Source of the DNA: a virus
Lineage: Duplodnaviria > Caudoviricetes
Direction: 5' to 3' (one strand)
Length of the DNA: 64,000 bases
Virus record (IMG/VR): IMGVR_UViG_3300033163_000002
Span: 1,340-65,339 of that record
Position 1 is the stretch's first letter; each line of letters begins with the position of its first letter. Below, piece after piece: positions 22,708 to 37,938 of the stretch. The notes below the pieces were generated by a model that was given only the letters and a program-made list of their open reading frames with translations, made no database searches and had not been told where the DNA came from. Made by a program: the position numbers and the translations under genes.

Positions 22708-22814
22708 ACCTACTTGGATTGTTAATTAAACCAATATTTGTAGATGATTTCGTTATTTAGAATGATTATAAATTTCATTTTTTCTTGAAAAAAGGCTAAA
22801 TATCTTTAAAAAAA

Positions 22815-22846
22815 TTTGGTTTTTTAAAAGAATGGGCGTATATTTG
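22815..22846 (+). promoter_or_regulatory. Bacteroidota-type housekeeping promoter (-33 TTTG, -7 TAnnTTTG)
   Basis: TTTG at 22815-18, 20-nt spacer, TATATTTG at 22839-46; lies in the divergent intergenic gap. Confidence 0.7.
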
Positions 22847-22859
22847 AATCATTGAATGA

Positions 22860-23251
22860 CGCTCATTGACATCCTGATCTGATCAACCCGTTGAAAATTA
22901 GGGGGTTATCGCAAAATAAGGTGGTTTTGGCACCATCAGCAAGGCGGTAAGGTCCGAAGAGAGGAAGCGGAAAGGATCCAGAATCAGGAATGGGGTGGTA
23001 GATTCCGACAGGAAATGGATAGGTTCACTGGATCGGATGTGTTTCCACCCAATTCCCCAACAAGGGTCCCCCAGTTATTTACCGGGGACCGACGAATCCG
23101 GGGCAGTGTCATTCAAAGCCAATTGTAATTCAGCGATTCCTGTAGCAAGGTTTTTTGGTTCAAAACAGGCGAAGGCTCCTCCGGATTCCCCATCCCAGCA
23201 GATGGGTGAAGGGAATGGTTCAGAATATCCCCCGGGAGATTATCCCGGATC
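22860..23251 (+). ncRNA. Candidate structured non-coding RNA / long early leader
   Basis: ~390 nt after the promoter with no convincing CDS. Hairpins include GGTCCCC/GGGGACC (23065-23090), nested ATTCCC..CCCATC/GATGGG..GGGAAT and CCGGGA/TCCCGG. Confidence 0.45.
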
Positions 23252-23318
23252 CGGCGCTGCTGAGATTGGATTCCAGACAGTGAAGAACCTGGCGGTGGTT
23301 CGATTCCACCCAGTGCCG
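23252..23318 (+). ncRNA. tRNA-like element lacking a canonical D stem and anticodon arm
   Basis: (C)GGCGCTG/CAGTGCC(G) acceptor-like stem; perfect T arm GGTGG-TTCGATT-CCACC; CCAG/CTGG stem with a 12-nt loop. Confidence 0.55.
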
Positions 23319-23355
23319 CTAAATCCTAAATGTAAACCAAAAATCCTTTTCAATC

Positions 23356-23532
23356 ATGACAAATGACGCAAAAATGAACAGGCTTCGCAAAGCCGCCAAA
23401 ATGAGCACCGAAGATTTGGTGGTTGGCTTGAAAGCAATGGGAATCATCAAAGATGGCGAATCCCTGCTTTCCTACTTCAAAAAAGATCGGGACGAATTGA
23501 TCCTGATGTGGGCCACAAAGAAAAAAATGTAA
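23356..23532 (+). CDS. Small early hypothetical protein (58 aa)
   Basis: MTNDAKMNRL..KKKM; leader tgtaaaccaaaaatccttttcaat shared with the next gene. Confidence 0.65.
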   Translation: MTNDAKMNRLRKAAKMSTEDLVVGLKAMGIIKDGESLLSYFKKDRDELILMWATKKKM

Positions 23533-23553
23533 ACCAAAAAATCCTTTTCAATT

Positions 23554-23712
23554 ATGAAAGCAATCAAATTTGACGAAAAATTTATCAAAGACGTAGCGAA
23601 AGATCAGGGTATTACCAATCTTTCCACCCAGCAATGCCGGAAAGCCCATAACGCTTGCAAACATGCCGGAGAAGATTATTACTACCGGTTGAAAGAATAT
23701 TTTTATGCATAA
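23554..23712 (+). CDS. Small early hypothetical protein (52 aa)
   Basis: MKAIKFDEKF..EYFYA; ends 5 nt before hammerhead 1. Confidence 0.65.
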   Translation: MKAIKFDEKFIKDVAKDQGITNLSTQQCRKAHNACKHAGEDYYYRLKEYFYA

Positions 23713-23717
23713 ACAAA

Positions 23718-23771
23718 GCACTCTGATGAGGCTTCATGAGCCGAAACCCGGGATTGATCCCGGGTCAGTGT
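23718..23771 (+). ncRNA. Type I hammerhead ribozyme 1 (predicted cleavage after GUC at 23766)
   Basis: GCACT-CTGATGA-GGCT tcatg AGCC-GAAA-CCCGGGA ttga TCCCGGG-TC-AGTGT. Confidence 0.9.
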
Positions 23772-23793
23772 TAAACCCTTAAAACTTATTCCA

Positions 23794-24174
23794 ATGAAAA
23801 CCCATCAAACCACAAGAATCGTAGATGTTTCCCATTTGACAAAAATGGCCACGCAAACAACTCTGAATCTGCTGAATTCCATCAGGCCAGTTCTTTCTGA
23901 TCAATATGGAAAATTTCAATGGACCGCCTCCCATATCACCGATATGACGAAGATTCTGGTATACAAGGAATATCTGGATGTTCTGGACACCTTCAAGCGG
24001 ATCTGGATGGAGCAATATTCGCATATCGGGGGGTATCCTGATGAAGCCCGGATCCGGAAAAACGTAGAATTCTACAAGGGATTGCGCACCTGCCCCTTTG
24101 GATTTGAAATCTTTATGGCCGCCCATTCCATTGCTTCCCACATGTTGGAAGAGGGGGTTGAAGTTCAGGAATAA
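23794..24174 (+). CDS. Early hypothetical protein (126 aa)
   Basis: ORF flanked by hammerheads 1 and 2. Confidence 0.75.
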   Translation: MKTHQTTRIVDVSHLTKMATQTTLNLLNSIRPVLSDQYGKFQWTASHITDMTKILVYKEYLDVLDTFKRIWMEQYSHIGGYPDEARIRKNVEFYKGLRTCPFGFEIFMAAHSIASHMLEEGVEVQE

Positions 24175-24176
24175 CA

Positions 24177-24234
24177 AACACTCTGATGAGGATTCATGAT
24201 CCGAAATCCGGGGGATCATCCCCGGATCAGTGTT
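24177..24234 (+). ncRNA. Type I hammerhead ribozyme 2 (predicted cleavage after AUC at 24228)
   Basis: AACACT-CTGATGA-GGAT tcatg ATCC-GAAA-TCCGGGG gatcat CCCCGGA-TC-AGTGTT. Confidence 0.9.
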
Positions 24235-24255
24235 AAACCCTTAAAACTTATTCCA

Positions 24256-24522
24256 ATGAAAACTGTATCAGATCTTTTTAAATTGATCATCAAAGAAACC
24301 GCAATGAATGAAGGGAAAACCTGCAAATTTGTTTTCAGTATCAATACCCAGCATGGATGGGTTTCCATGTACCGGGAAGTAGATATTGAAGGGGAAAAGC
24401 CAGCAGAACTCTTCGCTCTGAAATCCATCAAAACCCCGGCCGAAGTTCAGGAAGTTTACTGGATGATCTGGAATCATGGCCGTTCCCGTAATTTGGATCT
24501 GGATGTTAACAAGGCATTCTGA
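24256..24522 (+). CDS. Early hypothetical protein (88 aa)
   Basis: Start refined to MKTVSDL; TGA stop lies in the core of hammerhead 3. Confidence 0.75.
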   Translation: MKTVSDLFKLIIKETAMNEGKTCKFVFSINTQHGWVSMYREVDIEGEKPAELFALKSIKTPAEVQEVYWMIWNHGRSRNLDLDVNKAF

Positions 24523-24570
24523 TGAGGCTTCAATAGCCGAAATCCGGGGAATCATCCCCGGATCAGTGTC
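24513..24570 (+). ncRNA. Type I hammerhead ribozyme 3 (predicted cleavage after AUC at 24564)
   Basis: GGCATT-CTGATGA-GGCT tcaat AGCC-GAAA-TCCGGGGA atca TCCCCGGA-TC-AGTGTC. Confidence 0.9.
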
Positions 24571-24592
24571 AATCTTAAAACCCCCAGAAATC

Positions 24593-24805
24593 ATGACAAC
24601 TTCCCTAAACATTGAAAAATTAACCAAAAAAGAAAAACAACAATTATTTGCTGTTCAAGTGTTCATAAAAAAGACCATGGATAGTGGTGATAATGAGCAC
24701 AAATTAAAAATGGATGAAGAATCCATCCTAAAAGTGTGGAATGATGAAAATACTTTTCCATGGTATATGCATTTAGGAACAGGAAAGCAAATAAAAACAC
24801 TCTGA
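24593..24805 (+). CDS. Early hypothetical protein (70 aa)
   Basis: Start refined to MTTSLNI; TGA stop lies in the core of hammerhead 4. Confidence 0.72.
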   Translation: MTTSLNIEKLTKKEKQQLFAVQVFIKKTMDSGDNEHKLKMDEESILKVWNDENTFPWYMHLGTGKQIKTL

Positions 24806-24853
24806 TGAGGATTCATGATCCGAAATCCGGGGGATCATCCCCGGATCAGTGTT
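24796..24853 (+). ncRNA. Type I hammerhead ribozyme 4 (predicted cleavage after AUC at 24847)
   Basis: Same sequence as hammerhead 2 over the ribozyme. Confidence 0.9.
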
Positions 24854-24876
24854 AAACCTTAAAAACCCCAGAAATC

Positions 24877-25095
24877 ATGACAGACGAAGAAAGGGAAGAA
24901 AGATCCCAAAAAATAGAAATGCTTTTTGAAGCGTTGGAATTGGTTCAACAAGCCCAGCAACTGGTAGATGATGCCCTTTCCGGAAGCAAACATGAATCCC
25001 ATTACAAAGCCTACGGGCGATATGGATTTGATCAATTGCTGGGCAATGGAAATCCCTACGATTATGATCTGGAAAAATTGTTGGAAGAATTCTAA
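24877..25095 (+). CDS. Early hypothetical protein (72 aa)
   Basis: Acidic helical ORF 29 nt after the hammerhead 4 cut site. Confidence 0.75.
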   Translation: MTDEEREERSQKIEMLFEALELVQQAQQLVDDALSGSKHESHYKAYGRYGFDQLLGNGNPYDYDLEKLLEEF

Positions 25096-25115
25096 AACCC
25101 CCAAAACTCCGAAAA

Positions 25116-25643
25116 ATGGAAAGAACAAAATTTAGCACACTTGATCAACTCAAAGATCAGATTACCAAAGAAATGCACAAGGATTATTTTTTCAATGGGG
25201 AGGTCTTCAATCCCCTGAATGAAGGATGGTGGTTCCAATTCGACAATGGCACCCGCCGAATGGGACAGTGCAGCATTCATTTGAAGCGGATTTCATTATC
25301 CAGAAAGATGTGTGAATTGAATATGAATCGATGGGATTTGATTGAAGATATTCTGTTGCATGAATTAGCCCACGCCTTCACCGAAAAGATCTACGGAAAG
25401 GAATCCTCTGGACACACCCCCCAATTCAGGCGAATCGCCAAATCAATGGGGTCCTCCCTTTTGGGGTCCATGATTCCTAAATCATTTGGATTGCGGGTCC
25501 CATATCGATATAAATATCGTTGTCCCGGGTGTGGAGGCACGTGGGAGCGGCAAAAGAAAATTGAAGGATCTTGTAGAGCCTGTTCCGGATCTAATATTTA
25601 TGATCCAAAATTCAAATTAGTTCTGGTTGATGAGGCACTCTGA
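25116..25643 (+). CDS. SprT-like zinc metalloprotease
   Basis: RRMGQC, LLHELAH, GHTPQF, C-terminal CPGC..CRAC; TGA stop in the core of hammerhead 5. Confidence 0.85.
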   Translation: MERTKFSTLDQLKDQITKEMHKDYFFNGEVFNPLNEGWWFQFDNGTRRMGQCSIHLKRISLSRKMCELNMNRWDLIEDILLHELAHAFTEKIYGKESSGHTPQFRRIAKSMGSSLLGSMIPKSFGLRVPYRYKYRCPGCGGTWERQKKIEGSCRACSGSNIYDPKFKLVLVDEAL

Positions 25644-25690
25644 TGAGACCTGATTGGTCGAAATCCGGGATCTGATCCCGGATCAGTGTC
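25634..25690 (+). ncRNA. Type I hammerhead ribozyme 5 (predicted cleavage after AUC at 25684)
   Basis: GGCACT-CTGATGA-GACC tgatt GGTC-GAAA-TCCGGGA tctga TCCCGGA-TC-AGTGTC. Confidence 0.9.
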
Positions 25691-25713
25691 AAACCTTAAA
25701 AACATTATCAATC

Positions 25714-25977
25714 ATGACAAAAATTACAATCCCAACAAACATGCCGCCAGAACAGATCCCGGCATATGTAAAGAATCAGATCCGGGGCATGGAAATGCGC
25801 AGAATGGCAAAAAATTCAGACGCCCCCATTCCCGAACCCAAATCAAAAAAAATCAAGGTGATTCCCGGTGATGACTGGACCACCAACACCAAAGGAATGA
25901 GCGGAAAGCAATTGAAAAGGGTGATCCAGATGTCCAAAGATTATGAATATCGGCGGACTAAATTCCCAAAAAAATAA
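25714..25977 (+). CDS. Early hypothetical basic protein (87 aa)
   Basis: Start refined to MTKITIP, 29 nt after the hammerhead 5 cut site. Confidence 0.7.
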   Translation: MTKITIPTNMPPEQIPAYVKNQIRGMEMRRMAKNSDAPIPEPKSKKIKVIPGDDWTTNTKGMSGKQLKRVIQMSKDYEYRRTKFPKK

Positions 25978-26010: not shown

Positions 26011-26116
26011 TTCGCAAATAAGGCACAAAAGAGGGCCATAGACGAATTTACACCCTGTTTTGATATCCTTATACCGCCCCGCAACCGATCGTCGATTTTG
26101 GTATATATCGTGGCTT
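26011..26116. repeat. ~106-bp intergenic element, inverted copy of 55884-55989
   Basis: ttcgcaaataaggcacaaaagagggccatagacgaatttacaccc..ccgatcgtcgattttggtatatatcgtggctt aligns ungapped with the reverse complement of 55884-55989. Confidence 0.85.
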
Positions 26117-26209
26117 TGCGGGGCATACATATTCAAATAATTTAATTAAACAATACTTCATAAATCAGGGCATAAACCAGAATATGGGCTGCCCATAAAT
26201 CAAAAAAAA

Positions 26210-28249
26210 ATGGAAACAAAAATGTATCGGATCGGACCATTGTTTGCCCGGAAAAATTCACTTCCGGTCGCCTTCGTCGCAAACAAATTGATTGAAAGCC
26301 CCCGCGCTGTTTACCTCAATGGACATGGCACTCTGGAAACTCAAAAAATGGGATTCTGTTGCATCTGTGGGAGGGAATTGACCCACCCGGTGTCTGTTGT
26401 TCTGGGAATCGGACCCCATTGCGGAGACCATTGGTGGAATTGGGATGCCATTGGTGGATTCAATGAAAATGTGTTGGAAGAATTAAAAATCCGGATTCAG
26501 GGAGTCAAAGTTGATCAGTGGATCCCGAAATCCGTCATCAAAGAAATATACGAAACAACAGAAATCATCACCACTCCTGAAAATCATCCTATGTTGAAAA
26601 AAGAAAATAAACCCAAGCAGGCTCCCGCCAGAAAGGCCACCCCGGTCAAATATCAGAATTCCGGGAAATGGGCTATTAAAATTGAATTTCCTTTCAATCA
26701 TGATGATCTGGGAAGGGTCAAAACCCTACCCGATCGTCGCTTTCACAATGAAGGAACAGAAAAATACTGGACCGCCCCCCTTTCCATTGAAGCTGTTGAA
26801 AAACTGCAAGAATGGGGGTTTCAGATGGATGATCGCTTGATCCGATATCTGGAAAAAACCAAAGTCAATGTGAAGGATGTTTCTGATGATATCCAGATCC
26901 CCGGATTGAAGGGGAATCTTTTTCCTTTCCAGAAAAAGGGTGTTGCCTTTCTGGAAGCAAAGGACGGGCGCGCCCTGATCGCCGATGAAATGGGATTGGG
27001 AAAGACCGTTCAGGCTTTGGCATATCTTCAATTGCATCAGGAAAAGCGCCCAGTAATCATTGTGGTCCCTGCTTCCCTGAAACTCAATTGGAAGAAAGAA
27101 GCCCGCCTGTGGATGGAAAACCCAAATGTCCAGATCCTTTCCGGAACCAATGCCAACATCCCCATCATCGGGGAAATCCTGATCATCAATTATGATATCC
27201 TTCCCCAATGGGTTGGCCGATTGATCCAGATCAAAGCGCAGATCCTGATCACCGATGAATGCCACTATTACAAGAATAATTCTGCGAACCGGACCAAGGC
27301 TGTTAAGAAATTGGGGAAATCCATCCCCCATGTTATAGCCCTTTCCGGAACCCCGATTGTTAATCGGCCTGTGGAAATCTTCAATGCTCTTTCCCTGATT
27401 GATTCCACTGTGATGCCCAGTTTCTGGAAATTTGCCCATAAATATTGTGGCGCCCGCCATAATGGATTCGGATGGGATTTCAATGGGGCTACCAATACCG
27501 ATGAATTGCATACCATCCTTTCCAACACCCTGATGATCCGCCGGAAAAAGGCAGATGTGTTGAAAGATCTTCCCGACAAAATCAGATCATTCATTCCGAT
27601 TGAGTTGAATAATGAAAAGGAATACCGCAAGGCGGAATCTGATTTCATTGCCTATCTGCGGGAGCAGAAAGGAATGACTGCCGCTGATCGGGCTTCCAAT
27701 GCCCAAGCCCTTGCCGAAATTGAAGGATTGAAGCAATTGGCGGTTGCCGGAAAAATGAAACAGGTCGTTGAATGGATCCGGGATTTCATGGAAAGTGATG
27801 AAAAATTGGTCATATTCGCCACCCATAAATTCGTGATCGATGCCCTGATGAAAGAATTCAGCGGGATGGCCGTCAAAGTGGATGGATCTGTTTCCGGGGA
27901 AAACCGCCATCAGGCCGTTGAATTATTCCAGAATGATCCAAATGTCAGGATCTTTGTGGGGAATATCAAAGCCGCCGGGGTGGGTCTTACCCTGACTGCC
28001 GCATCAAATGTATTGTTTCTGGAACTCCCGTGGACTCCGGGGGATCTGACCCAGGCGGAGGATAGGTGCCACCGGATCGGACAAAAGGAATCTGTGACAA
28101 TTCATTATCTGCTTGCCGCCGGAACCATTGAAGAAAAAATTGCTTCCCTGATTGATCGGAAGCGTCGGATTTTGGATTCTGTTCTGGATGGAACCATCAC
28201 CGATCAGGAATCACTACTTTCTGAATTGATCAAAGATTTAACCCAATAA
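26210..28249 (+). CDS. SNF2-family helicase with N-terminal DUF6011-like Zn finger and HARP-like domain
   Basis: CCICGRELTHPVS..GIGPHCG; IEFPF..DL..VK.L..RRF..KYW; ADEMGLGKT, DECH, LSGTP, AAGVGLTL, QAEDRCHRIGQ. Confidence 0.9.
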   Translation: METKMYRIGPLFARKNSLPVAFVANKLIESPRAVYLNGHGTLETQKMGFCCICGRELTHPVSVVLGIGPHCGDHWWNWDAIGGFNENVLEELKIRIQGVKVDQWIPKSVIKEIYETTEIITTPENHPMLKKENKPKQAPARKATPVKYQNSGKWAIKIEFPFNHDDLGRVKTLPDRRFHNEGTEKYWTAPLSIEAVEKLQEWGFQMDDRLIRYLEKTKVNVKDVSDDIQIPGLKGNLFPFQKKGVAFLEAKDGRALIADEMGLGKTVQALAYLQLHQEKRPVIIVVPASLKLNWKKEARLWMENPNVQILSGTNANIPIIGEILIINYDILPQWVGRLIQIKAQILITDECHYYKNNSANRTKAVKKLGKSIPHVIALSGTPIVNRPVEIFNALSLIDSTVMPSFWKFAHKYCGARHNGFGWDFNGATNTDELHTILSNTLMIRRKKADVLKDLPDKIRSFIPIELNNEKEYRKAESDFIAYLREQKGMTAADRASNAQALAEIEGLKQLAVAGKMKQVVEWIRDFMESDEKLVIFATHKFVIDALMKEFSGMAVKVDGSVSGENRHQAVELFQNDPNVRIFVGNIKAAGVGLTLTAASNVLFLELPWTPGDLTQAEDRCHRIGQKESVTIHYLLAAGTIEEKIASLIDRKRRILDSVLDGTITDQESLLSELIKDLTQ

Positions 28250-29096: not shown

Positions 29097-29194
29097 GGCA
29101 GATGTAGTCGTAATGGAATAACGATCCGGAATTGCCGATTAGAGCAATGTAAACACGATCACCGGGGATATGGGTTCGAGTCCCATCGCCTGCC
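29097..29194 (+). tRNA. Atypical tRNA (His-like extra G-1:C73 pair) with a 32-nt expanded anticodon domain; pseudo- or intron-containing tRNA
   Basis: Acceptor GCAGATG/CGCCTGC, D arm GTCG-taatggaataa-CGAT, T arm ATGGG-TTCGAGT-CCCAT; CCGG/CCGG stem encloses 32 nt; no encoded CCA. Confidence 0.6.
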
Positions 29195-34737: not shown

Positions 34738-34906
34738 ACTCCCCATCCGGCATTGTCGGTATTGTGGGAAAAAATTCCAATTGGATCGGGAAATCATCCT
34801 GTTGATTGAAGATGAATTCATCGAATCCAATGCGGAAATATGTGATGATTGTATGGAAATCCGAATAAATGAAATGAAAGAAAGGAATCAGAATGAAACT
34901 TTATGA
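34712..34906 (+). CDS. Small Zn-finger protein
   Basis: CRYC..CDDC; 64 aa from ATG 34712. Confidence 0.55.
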   Translation: MPNGKRTGKLPIRHCRYCGKKFQLDREIILLIEDEFIESNAEICDDCMEIRINEMKERNQNETL

Positions 34907-35546
34907 AATCTTTGAATCCATTTCCGGGGAATCCGGAATCATTCCGCAGGGCGCCTGGTGCACTTTTATCAGGTTTAAGGGGTGTAATCTTCGCTGCCAT
35001 TATTGCGATACTGCCCACACCCAGATTGGAGGCGGGGAAGATACATCCATGATGGAAATTGCTGATCAGATCAAAACCAAATATGTGACCATCACCGGGG
35101 GGGAACCCCTACTGCAGAAAGATCTGGGAAGATTGATCAATGAATTGAAGAAAGCAGGACATATCATTCAGGTGGAAACAAATGGATCCTTTCCACCCCT
35201 TCGCGGGGCTCCCTGTGGTTGGGTGATGGATCTCAAAGGACCCTCTTCCGGAATGTCCGAACAAATACCCCCTTTGCCGGAATTCATTGAAAGGATTCAG
35301 GGATTGGATGCGGTTGTGAAATTCATTATCCAGAAAGGGAATGATCATGATCTGTTCTTTGCCTGTAATAAAAGCATGATGTTGGCGGATTATGGGTATC
35401 AGGGGAATTTTATATTCAGTCCGATGGATGCGGATCCGGCAACCATTGAATGGATGATGCCCATATTGGATTCGTTTCTTCCCCTGAGTATCAAAAGCAG
35501 ATTGATTATTTCACTCCAGATTCATAAATTGTGCAAAATGCCTTAA
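34893..35546 (+). CDS. queE: 7-carboxy-7-deazaguanine synthase (radical SAM)
   Basis: EIF.SI.GE, FIRF.GCNLRC.YCDT, ITGGEPLLQ, ETNG, QIHK. Confidence 0.93.
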   Translation: MKLYEIFESISGESGIIPQGAWCTFIRFKGCNLRCHYCDTAHTQIGGGEDTSMMEIADQIKTKYVTITGGEPLLQKDLGRLINELKKAGHIIQVETNGSFPPLRGAPCGWVMDLKGPSSGMSEQIPPLPEFIERIQGLDAVVKFIIQKGNDHDLFFACNKSMMLADYGYQGNFIFSPMDADPATIEWMMPILDSFLPLSIKSRLIISLQIHKLCKMP

Positions 35547-35571
35547 TGAAAACAAAACGTTTGGTATAATA
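35545..35571 (+). promoter_or_regulatory. Putative phage promoter AATGAA-N13-GTATAATA (copy 3)
   Basis: Directly after the queE stop codon. Confidence 0.6.
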
Positions 35572-35612
35572 TAACAAAGATCCTATTTTACCAAACATCA
35601 AAAACCCAAATT

Positions 35613-36230
35613 ATGAAAACCTTAGTAGGAATTGCAAAAGATCTAAACGAAGTGATGGGATTGGATCCCAAAATCCCTGTGGTCGGGATTACCAAAGAAA
35701 AATTGACCGCCCAGATCAAAAAAGCATCGGCAATGATTGATCCGATCAATGATGAATTTACCCCGGAAACCGTCGCTGGATTGAAGAATCTGGGTTTCTG
35801 GAAAGAAGATGATTCAGATCAGGAGGACACCCCGGAAGCATTGGATTTGGAATCCCTGATCCATCAGACCAAAGATTTGAAGGAATTGAAGGCCTTGGTG
35901 AAGGATCGGGAAGAATTCAAACCGCTCCGGAAAAGAATTGCCGGGATGTTTGATCTGAATGATCTGCGGGAAGAAATGCTTTCCCTTTTGGATCCGGATT
36001 ACACTCCCCCTGCTCCGGAAAAGAAGCCCAAGGCTGAAAAGGCTCCGGAAAAGAAAGGACCCAATCAAACAACTCTGATCCGCTCCCTGATCAAATCAAA
36101 AGCCAAAAGGGAAACCATTGTCAAAGAATTGGCGGAAACCTTTGAAAAGACTGAAGGATGGGCCAATTCCCGCCTGAAAGTCTACGAAAATGCCTATGGG
36201 GAAATGGGCGTAAATGATAAAAATTTGTAA
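35613..36230 (+). CDS. Hypothetical protein
   Basis: 205-aa charged helical ORF. Confidence 0.7.
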   Translation: MKTLVGIAKDLNEVMGLDPKIPVVGITKEKLTAQIKKASAMIDPINDEFTPETVAGLKNLGFWKEDDSDQEDTPEALDLESLIHQTKDLKELKALVKDREEFKPLRKRIAGMFDLNDLREEMLSLLDPDYTPPAPEKKPKAEKAPEKKGPNQTTLIRSLIKSKAKRETIVKELAETFEKTEGWANSRLKVYENAYGEMGVNDKNL

Positions 36231-36350
36231 TCATGTTGATCCAATTTTTATCAGATTTTTTCAAACAACCAGAATCAGTTATCCAGCGGGTGCTCCATGA
36301 TCGGGAGCACCTGTTGGGCATTGAATCATTTTTGTGAAAAACAGCCACTG

Positions 36351-36599
36351 ATGAATGTCATTGCGATTGATTTTGATGGGACCGCTTCGGAACACCCCGA
36401 AAAGGTCAATCAATTATACGAAAACAGGAATAATTTCATTGTAATCTACACAGCCAGAAGCCCCGAAATCAGGGAAAAAACTGAAAAAGAATTGCAAATG
36501 CTGGGAATCCGATATCATGCATTGGTTATGGGGAAATTGCGGGCAGATTTCTATGTAGATGACAGAAACCAAGGGGGATTAAAATGGCCAGAATATTAG
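36351..36599 (+). CDS. Minimal HAD-superfamily phosphatase
   Basis: IAIDFDGT, IYTAR, GK..AD.YVDDR; start refined to 36351. Confidence 0.75.
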   Translation: MNVIAIDFDGTASEHPEKVNQLYENRNNFIVIYTARSPEIREKTEKELQMLGIRYHALVMGKLRADFYVDDRNQGGLKWPEY

Positions 36600-37279
36600 C
36601 ATTCAGCGCAGGGATGGATTCCCTGATCATGAAAAAATTATGCGGGTATCCGGATTCGGAATGTCTTTTTGTGGACATGGGGACTGAAGAAAACAAACAG
36701 GAGCGGGCTCTGATTGAGCGGTTCTATCCATCCGTTCAGATCCACCAAATGCCAATTGCTCGCTTTGAATTACCAAACAAAATCATCCCTTTCCGGAATC
36801 ATCTGTTGGCATTTATTGCTGCCCAATTCGGAACTGATATTGGATTTGCATTCACCGCCGGGGATACCACCAGGGACAAGGATTATGTCTTTAAAGCGCA
36901 GATTGAAGGAGCGTTAAATTATTTTTGTGGAATCCCTGAAAAAAGCCCCTTCCCCGGAAGCACTTATTCCATTTTCATGCCATTCAAAGATATGACCAAA
37001 GCGGATATGGTGCGGTTTTTTCTGGAGCGAGGGCATAGTCCATTGATTTTGAAAGATCAATCCATTTCCTGTTATGAAGGGAAAGGGGATTCTTGTGGGG
37101 TTTGTCGATCCTGCCTTCGTAAATTCGTTGCACTCACCCTGAATGGGATTGAATGCAGGGATTGGTTTGCTCAAAATCCTGCTACCCAATTGGGTGCTTT
37201 TTATCAGGAATGTGAAAGAAAAAACAGACAATTGGAATCCAAAGATGTTTTGCGATGCATAGACCTATTACAGGAATAA
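36584..37279 (+). CDS. queC: QueC-like PP-loop ATPase, paralog 1
   Basis: SAGMDS PP-loop variant, IPFRN..L, P...MTKAD, SCY..CGVCRSC..K. Confidence 0.75.
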   Translation: MARILAFSAGMDSLIMKKLCGYPDSECLFVDMGTEENKQERALIERFYPSVQIHQMPIARFELPNKIIPFRNHLLAFIAAQFGTDIGFAFTAGDTTRDKDYVFKAQIEGALNYFCGIPEKSPFPGSTYSIFMPFKDMTKADMVRFFLERGHSPLILKDQSISCYEGKGDSCGVCRSCLRKFVALTLNGIECRDWFAQNPATQLGAFYQECERKNRQLESKDVLRCIDLLQE

Positions 37280-37938
37280 TGGCAACCGGGGGAATTGATT
37301 CCACCGTATTGCTATATGATTTGGTGAAAAAGGGGGGCAAGCCCCAAATTTTAACTATTGATTATGGACATTCAACATTCTGGATTCAATGGGAATTGTT
37401 GAAATTCCATGCGAACCATTTGAAATTAAACCCCCCGATTTCCATCCCCATTGTTTACCACCCATGGCAAACCCGGGAAGGATTATTCACCCGGGGATAT
37501 TCCCCAAATGAAAAGGATCCGCTGGGAGATTGGGATTCCTTGCGGTATGCTGATTTTTTTGTTGAAGGTCGGAATTCAATCATGGTTTTATATGCAATGG
37601 CATATTGCTCTGCGCATGGGATTGATGAATTATTGGCCGGCTATCTATATGGGCGGGAAGAATGGGAAAACCGCAGATCTTATAAATTGATGACCGGGGA
37701 TAATTCCCCGCAATTCGTGGATGCAATAAACATCCTGTCCCAATTGGGATTCTCACACCAAGTTCGTTTCAGAGCTCCATTTTATGAACAAAGGATGGAT
37801 AAAGCGGACATCATTCAAAGAGGAAAAGAATTGGGGGTGGATTTTGGAAAAACATATTCATGTTATTTTGATCCGGAATGTGGAAAATGTGATAATTGTT
37901 TGTTAAGAAAAAAATACCTAAATAATGAAATCAACTGA
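37255..37938 (+). CDS. queC: QueC-like PP-loop ATPase, paralog 2
   Basis: TGGIDS PP-loop variant, [29 protein letters not shown]. Confidence 0.8.

Follow-up and report, generated by a model that had tools for sequence, protein, structure and literature searches.

The virus record IMGVR_UViG_3300033163_000002 (IMG/VR; Duplodnaviria, Caudoviricetes) represents an uncultivated, tailed phage, of which 64,000 nucleotides (nt), positions 1,340 to 65,339, were analysed here as a single window. Within a run of eight small open reading frames (ORFs) in this window, five intergenic repeats were confirmed by structural criteria as genuine type I hammerhead motifs, and catalysis is predicted for them. 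Our leading hypothesis, which we regard as probably correct, is that they act as functional self-cleaving ribozymes that cut the early small-gene transcript into mRNAs of one or two genes. The hypothesis draws on what was observed here: the motifs are present and covary, they fit exactly into the space from stop codon to leader, and they recur in related phages.

Five type I hammerheads in the small-gene run

All five copies (hammerheads 1 to 5, HH1 to HH5; Table 1) share one layout. From 5′ to 3′, this comprises an A, a 6-nt stem I strand, CUGAUGA, stem II (4 bp with a 5-nt loop) and GAA, followed by a GC-rich stem III of 8–9 bp that runs from A15.1 to U16.1, C17, the second 6-nt strand of stem I and a final AA. 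Hammerheads were called with the structural criteria of Perreault et al. (2011), and the core C3 U4 G5 A6 N7 G8 A9, G12 A13 A14, the A15.1-U16.1 pair and H17 were found in each copy; all 13 core positions are canonical throughout and there are no mispairs adjacent to the core. The open helix is stem I (6 bp) in every case, which is the type I order. A first reading of the DNA, made without database searches (the sequence-only reading), had placed five repeats at these sites, all on the coding strand and each with a complete core (CUGAUGA...GAAA...UC), and had assigned them to type I. All of this was upheld, and the five cut positions that it predicted coincide with C17 of the respective copies.

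The fold is favoured both thermodynamically and by the pattern of substitutions. The three-way junction is the minimum-energy structure of four of the five copies (ViennaRNA; z −2.1 to −3.5). HH2 and HH4 are identical across 60 nt; among the four distinct window copies, 100% of the cells in paired columns are paired and 6 of the 18 base pairs are changed on both sides, while control alignments in which the partner column was slid by 1–3 positions gave 22–49% pairing. The compensatory stem changes noted in the sequence-only reading are therefore real.

The number of copies in the window is above chance. For a loose core pattern, 13 occurrences were counted where 3.1 were expected, and the foldable ones are these five only. 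A covariance model built from the five window copies (R1) scored them at 79–89 bits, with the next match in the window at 15 bits when filters were switched off, and recovered exactly five copies over the whole virus record. A separate, hand-written structural descriptor covering type I and type III hammerheads returned the same five in the window and four in the related locus L007, with nothing in ~120 kb of other related loci.

Relatives, conserved layout and Rfam thresholds

Related sequences were gathered by two routes: from loci encoding relatives of the helicase or the large terminase subunit (TerL) at 39–66% identity, and by a pattern scan of IMG/VR, which gave 72 loci that were then searched with the covariance model. 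The exact window-specific pattern found 0 loci in viral contigs and a looser one was used instead. Related phage contigs hold one to five copies of the subtype seen in the window. By the first route, four copies were found in L007, three in L017 and two each in L024, L053, L065 and L087. The distribution is patchy, with the motif in one of 11 helicase relatives. Copies in the five TerL-derived loci are found on the opposite strand to TerL, those of L017 within ~2 kb of it. The second route gave 107 model matches in 70 of the 72 loci, including arrays of three to five.

Covariation across related phage contigs, by which the sequence-only reading had proposed to judge the fold, speaks strongly for it. 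The alignment from the first route has 98.9% of its cells paired, with two-sided compensatory changes at 16 of 18 pairs, compared with 27–33% pairing in the slid-partner controls (1–3 columns); 75 distinct copies from 70 further viral contigs have 99.1% of cells paired. Both alignments were fitted to the model, which inflates these percentages somewhat, and the pairing signal is far beyond such bias. Judged from these alignments, selection clearly acts on the ribozyme fold, and the relatives reinforce the type I identity, the covariation and the sense-strand placement of the window copies.

One copy among the relatives departs from the standard core. At L087:4987-5046 (minus strand) the sequence GUGAACA stands in place of CUGAUGA, so that C3-G8 is swapped to G3-C8, and H17 is A. 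Core covariation of this kind has been reported only as U3-A8 (Perreault et al., 2011; PMC3088659), and the swap in L087 is a candidate for another natural case.

The unpaired positions around the helices are also conserved. Of 94 distinct copies, 93 have an A immediately 5′ of stem I. Among the 34 copies that were not pre-selected by the search pattern, the two positions 3′ of stem I are A in 94%, and loop II is mostly a U-N-A-A/U-U pentaloop across the family. The unpaired As flanking stem I and the pentaloop may represent the tertiary docking elements that natural hammerheads need. Across the family, Watson-Crick pairing of loop II was below expectation with the 5′ flank, marginal with the 3′ flank (54 vs 44.5 ± 4.1) and not significant with the start-codon region or the leader (p 0.11–0.62). 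Four of the five loop II sequences in the window have 5–6 nt complementary to the start region; this complementarity is not family-wide, and a loop II pseudoknot was rejected as a family feature.

The motif is fitted tightly between the stop codon of one gene and the leader of the next. The upstream stop lies 1–6 nt 5′ of the motif in 34 copies and coincides with the first UGA of CUGAUGA in 14, which include three of the five window copies (HH3, HH4 and HH5). Downstream, the distance from cut site to AUG is 27, 27, 28, 29 and 29 nt in the window. Family members with a callable ORF show 23–30 nt in 70 of 80 cases and 25–29 nt in 60 of 80. The leaders in the window are G-poor and have no Shine-Dalgarno motif, and the repeat unit runs through the leader into the first codons, with those of HH1 and HH2 identical that far. 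Two junctions in the operon have no ribozyme and are plain spacers of 20–21 nt with a similar composition, which gives the hammerhead the look of an insert of ~58 nt between a stop codon and a standard spacer.

A different leader was seen in seven of the viral contigs (L119, L120, L168, L130, L156, L141 and L145), in which three to five copies of the subtype are spaced ~350–800 nt apart. Here the leader is distinct but conserved (AACUGCUAGGAG...) and contains a Shine-Dalgarno-like GGAG; different translation signals thus accompany the cassette in different hosts.

Searches with the Rfam hammerhead models, the other computational check proposed in the sequence-only reading, brought no model to its gathering score. 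In gathering mode there was no match in the window, nor in the 11 helicase-related loci, L007 with its four copies included. In E-value mode the hammerhead matches in the window were all sub-threshold, RF02276 (Hammerhead_II) had no match at E ≤ 10, and twister, pistol, hatchet and HDV-like (hepatitis delta virus-like) ribozymes had none anywhere in the window at E ≤ 1. What the models look for, according to the Rfam alignments, is a short helix III, an additional hairpin upstream or a stem II that is all but missing. The low scores arise because the models were trained on eukaryotic type I motifs with a short helix III and on a variant with a stem II of one base pair. A widespread phage type I subtype thus falls below the curated threshold of every hammerhead model in Rfam 15, and automated annotation therefore leaves such arrays unmarked. 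This invisibility, together with the quantified stop-ribozyme-leader-AUG architecture of the subtype, is a modest addition to what was known.

Table 1. Positions in the window of the five hammerheads, their predicted leaders and the neighbouring genes and signals.
Feature	Position	Strand	Details
Hammerhead 1 (type I)	23717..23772	+	core CUGAUGA at 23723; predicted cleavage after C23766; R1 81.5 bits
Hammerhead 2	24177..24234	+	core at 24183; predicted cleavage after C24228; R1 88.9 bits
Hammerhead 3	24513..24570	+	core at 24519; predicted cleavage after C24564; R1 86.7 bits
Hammerhead 4	24796..24853	+	core at 24802; predicted cleavage after C24847; R1 88.9 bits
Hammerhead 5	25634..25690	+	core at 25640; predicted cleavage after C25684; R1 78.8 bits
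Predicted post-cleavage leader (example)	23767..23793	+	6 nt of stem I, then AA, then G-poor ~20 nt up to AUG
Other predicted post-cleavage leaders	24229-24255, 24565-24592, 24848-24876, 25685-25713	+	27–29 nt each
Two small ORFs, 58 and 52 amino acids (aa)	23356..23712	+	23356-23532 and 23554-23712; 21-nt spacer without ribozyme
ORF, 126 aa	23794..24174	+	no assigned function
ORF, 88 aa	24256..24522	+	stop is the UGA within the CUGAUGA core of hammerhead 3
ORF, 70 aa	24593..24805	+	stop within the core of hammerhead 4
ORF, 72 aa, and SprT-like ORF, 175 aa	24877..25643	+	24877-25095 and 25116-25643; plain 20-nt spacer between them; SprT-like stop within the core of hammerhead 5
ORF, 87 aa (final small gene)	25714..25977	+	followed by a 232-nt gap and the SNF2-type helicase gene (26210-28249)
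Candidate Bacteroidota-type promoter, TTTG-N20-TATATTTG	22815..22846	+	pattern TTTG-N20-TAnnTTTG; gap between small terminase gene and divergent operon

Proposed transcript processing and competing explanations

Hammerhead cleavage is well established to leave a 2′,3′-cyclic phosphate and a 5′-OH. Under the leading hypothesis, each motif would fold into its three-way junction during transcription and cut after its own C17, so that one transcript would yield six pieces carrying 2, 1, 1, 1 and 2 genes, with the last piece opening with the 87-aa gene. The first piece, bicistronic for the 58-aa and 52-aa genes, would end at HH1. It would be followed by a monocistronic piece of 462 nt for the 126-aa gene (23767-24228), pieces of 336 nt (24229-24564) and 283 nt (24565-24847) for the 88-aa and 70-aa genes, and a bicistronic piece of 837 nt (24848-25684) for the 72-aa and SprT-like genes. 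Each upstream piece would retain its stop codon and end in the stem II and stem III hairpins with a 2′,3′-cyclic phosphate, and each downstream piece would open with a 5′-OH and the uniform G-poor leader of 27–29 nt that has no Shine-Dalgarno motif. With their ends defined in this way, neighbouring cistrons could be uncoupled in stability and translation. Cleavage in vivo, co-transcription of the eight genes and the uncoupling of adjacent cistrons are proposed by analogy, from hammerhead chemistry and from the findings of Perreault et al. (2011).

The idea of processing into mono- or bicistronic units came from the sequence-only reading, and motif identity, covariation and placement support it as the leading hypothesis. 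Its upstream 'host-type promoter' could not be confirmed. A sigma-70 scan found no promoter upstream of the array, and the pattern of the Bacteroidota-style candidate (Table 1) occurs in the window at chance frequency (2 found vs 2.06 expected), so that its position is the only thing in its favour.

Several points weigh against transcript processing by these motifs, in addition to the model-fitted alignments mentioned above. The best score for RF00163 (Hammerhead_1) is 14.7 bits, in HH5 only, compared with a gathering score of 34; RF03152 reaches 23.3–26.3 bits in HH1, HH3 and HH5 against 56.3, with its upstream hairpin aligning poorly, and RF00008 (Hammerhead_3) reaches 21.1 bits against 48.5. 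The minimum-energy fold of HH3 is a competing structure rather than the three-way junction (ViennaRNA). No tertiary contact between stem I and loop II was demonstrated, the pseudoknot test that compared loop II with the flanks being non-significant, and cleavage rates at physiological Mg2+ could therefore be low. Cleavage and co-transcription in this phage are themselves read from sequence, the evidence for the promoter and for co-transcription of the eight genes being strand, spacing and one motif match at chance level.

The failure of every Rfam hammerhead model to pass its threshold, along with an activity that is predicted from sequence, could be taken to mean that the repeats are inactive, that is, hairpin-rich intergenic terminators, RNase III sites or protein-binding sites whose likeness to hammerheads is due to chance or decay. 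We find this highly implausible given that all 13 core positions are canonical in all five copies and that the covariation fits precisely the three hammerhead helices. Moreover, stem III is not followed by a U-tract, the terminator scan makes no plus-strand call at any of the five sites, and stems of 4–9 bp are too short for RNase III; the terminator and RNase III-site versions were rejected on these grounds. It is somewhat easier to imagine, and still unlikely, that the hammerhead-leader cassettes are recombination or mobility modules, serving as boundary repeats of ~90 nt for the swapping, duplication and loss of small early genes, with cleavage incidental or secondary. The identity of HH2 and HH4 despite unrelated flanking genes would be explained in this way, as would the leaders of HH1 and HH2 that remain identical through the first codons, the variation in copy number and position among relatives (with the motif in a single one of the 11 helicase relatives) and the presence of the subtype in at least 70 otherwise diverse viral contigs. 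A pure recombination signal, however, needs neither an invariant catalytic core nor compensatory changes in three helices nor conserved unpaired As.

The predicted products also raise the question of whether the cut gene segments are re-ligated into circular or spliced RNAs, be it through reversal of hammerhead cleavage or through a host ligase of the RtcB type. The excised segments would bear the 5′-OH and 2′,3′-cyclic phosphate that this takes, and the 5′ end of each of the four internal segments pairs with the stem I strand of the next hammerhead at 6, 6, 5 and 6 of 6 positions, so that a nicked chimeric hammerhead could form in cis. Retrozymes use such a route (PMC6155905). In principle, the four internal segments might thus refold, with their own 5′ end completing the 3′ hammerhead, and be ligated into circular phage mRNAs; were this true, such mRNAs would withstand exonucleases and could be translated with no free 5′ end. 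We consider it very improbable, since successive stems I are not interchangeable in the relative L017, and since spliced or circular products of clustered prophage hammerheads were sought by Perreault et al. and none were found (PMC3088659).

A more serious contender refines the processing hypothesis rather than excluding it. The main role of the ribozyme may be to strip away the upstream RNA context and give the next gene a standard short 5′-OH leader that sets translation initiation and 5′-end-dependent decay, in a host that makes no use of Shine-Dalgarno pairing; the array would then be a natural counterpart of engineered insulators such as RiboJ. The narrow cut-to-AUG range across the family (25–29 nt in 60 of 80 members), the extension of the repeat unit through the leader and first codons and the low G content of the leaders are all in keeping with this. 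So is the scarcity of Shine-Dalgarno-like motifs, which precede only 7 of the 52 genes in the window, and so are the cultured phages nearest by TerL, which are Cellulophaga and Croceibacter phages (38% identity) that infect Flavobacteriaceae. The last two points hint weakly that the host may belong to the Bacteroidota. Hammerheads in 5′ untranslated regions have also been reported to serve translation initiation in RNA viruses (PMC13725137). A fixed distance would, however, equally be expected from a ribozyme inserted before an ordinary 20–21 nt spacer, so that no special role is required; the host is a guess based on 38% TerL identity, and a link between 5′-OH ends and bacterial translation is conjectural here. 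We therefore hold a dedicated role in setting the leader to be a tentative possibility, behind transcript processing as such.

Genomic setting and known systems

The virus record is 65,339 bp (65.3 kb) long, with an estimated completeness of ~92%, and nearly all of it is covered by the window. Its sequence occurs in eight listed sludge metagenomes, marked 'DNA?'; the sequencing runs listed for it include no RNA run. The left 22.7 kb carries, on the minus strand, a structural module of small and large terminase, portal, head proteins, tape measure and tail fibre. Divergent from this, on the plus strand, is the run of eight small ORFs (23356-25977), downstream of which lie genes for an SNF2-type helicase, a sigma-70-like protein, a primase, a DnaC-like loader and a DnaB-like helicase, as well as 7-deazaguanine synthesis genes, a family A DNA polymerase and RecA. 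There was no sign of an integrase in the scanned ORFs, and the phage is apparently lytic. The SprT-like ORF matches PF10263 (E 9.7e-13; Pfam). None of the other cargo ORFs had a match in Pfam or PHROG, and an Atlas search with the 126-aa ORF returned nothing usable. Paralogy among the cargo genes was rejected, as the ORFs are unrelated to each other and only the intergenic cassettes repeat.

Several features around the array were recorded in passing. The 650-bp gap between the divergent modules (22708-23355) is slightly more stable in its folding than shuffled versions (z −2.0), and no related locus shows DNA similarity to it. Within it, just 5′ of the first small gene, is a tRNA-like fragment (23253-23320, plus strand). 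Its T arm is perfect (GGTGG-TTCGATT-CCACC), and the strand after it forms 8 bp with a stretch lying ~50 nt further upstream. The fragment is reported by ARAGORN, with mismatches, only when thresholds are set to 70%, and Rfam matches the T arm only; an attP-type tRNA remnant is one possibility, a processing signal within the operon leader another. At the other end of the run, the 232-nt gap before the helicase gene contains a GC-rich inverted repeat of 9 bp with a 31-nt loop (26076-26124, plus strand; GCCCCGCAA / TTGCGGGGC), which may be where the small-gene transcription unit ends, or else a middle promoter or operator. The terminator scan did not call it a terminator. Further downstream, between the sigma-like and primase-like genes, is a tRNA-like gene (29098-29194, plus strand; RF00005, 29.9 bits vs a gathering score of 29) that was missed by ARAGORN and by the fast-filter gathering run of Rfam. 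Its acceptor, D and T arms are good, and ~32 nt stand at the place of the anticodon loop, amounting to an insertion of ~25 nt with a small hairpin. A radical-SAM (QueE-like) ORF and two QueC-like ORFs at 34893-37938 (plus strand) suggest 7-deazaguanine modification of the phage DNA.

Gene-by-gene hammerhead arrays in phages have been described since 2011, and the present locus is a clean five-copy example rather than a new type of system. Perreault et al. (2011; PLoS Comput Biol, PMC3088659) found multiple prophage hammerheads flanking single genes or short gene blocks and proposed that they process long phage transcripts into gene- or operon-length mRNAs. Three of their tandem arrangements, at least one of them a triple, were cleaved in vitro and one was cleaved in vivo in E. 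coli. The review of De la Peña et al. (2017; PMC6155905) made the same point for small, non-conserved ORFs and called the role an open question, as it still is for phage hammerheads (PMC6765202; PMC6155905). The window closely resembles the prophage clusters of Perreault et al. (2011) in that several coding-strand hammerheads border either individual genes or short groups of small, non-conserved ORFs, its five copies within 1.97 kb delimiting units of 2, 1, 1, 1 and 2 genes. It differs in that 2 kb contain five type I copies, in that the phage is uncultivated, apparently lytic and known from sequence alone, in the overlap of three copies with the upstream stop and in the uniform cut-to-AUG distance of 27–29 nt.

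Among the Rfam families, RF00163 (Hammerhead_1), which consists mainly of eukaryotic satellite and retroelement copies, has the same topology with an open stem I, the same core and the same cleavage site. Unlike these, the phage motif has a helix III of 8–9 bp, and should therefore act as a monomer, and a 6-bp helix I that has no internal loop and is bounded by the conserved unpaired As. RF03152 (RAGATH-1), which outscores the other Rfam models on three of the five copies, is likewise type I, with a long GC-rich stem III and a 5-bp stem I. The window copies lack its upstream hairpin and have a 4-bp stem II with a pentaloop, whereas stem II is near-absent in RF03152. In the RNase III sites of T7 early mRNA and in RiboJ, intercistronic cleavage leaves a 3′ hairpin on the upstream RNA and a defined leader on the downstream one. 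T7 relies on a host enzyme that produces 5′-phosphate and 3′-OH ends, and RiboJ is an engineered type III hammerhead; their likeness to the proposed array is one of function and not of family membership.

The overall picture of phage hammerheads is unchanged by this locus, which nonetheless provides a compact test case, with five near-canonical ribozymes, unrelated cargo genes and two ribozyme-less control junctions. The family-wide succession of stop codon, ribozyme, leader (~27 nt, no Shine-Dalgarno motif) and AUG makes both the processing of the early transcript and the setting of a standard leader for each gene directly testable with reporters.

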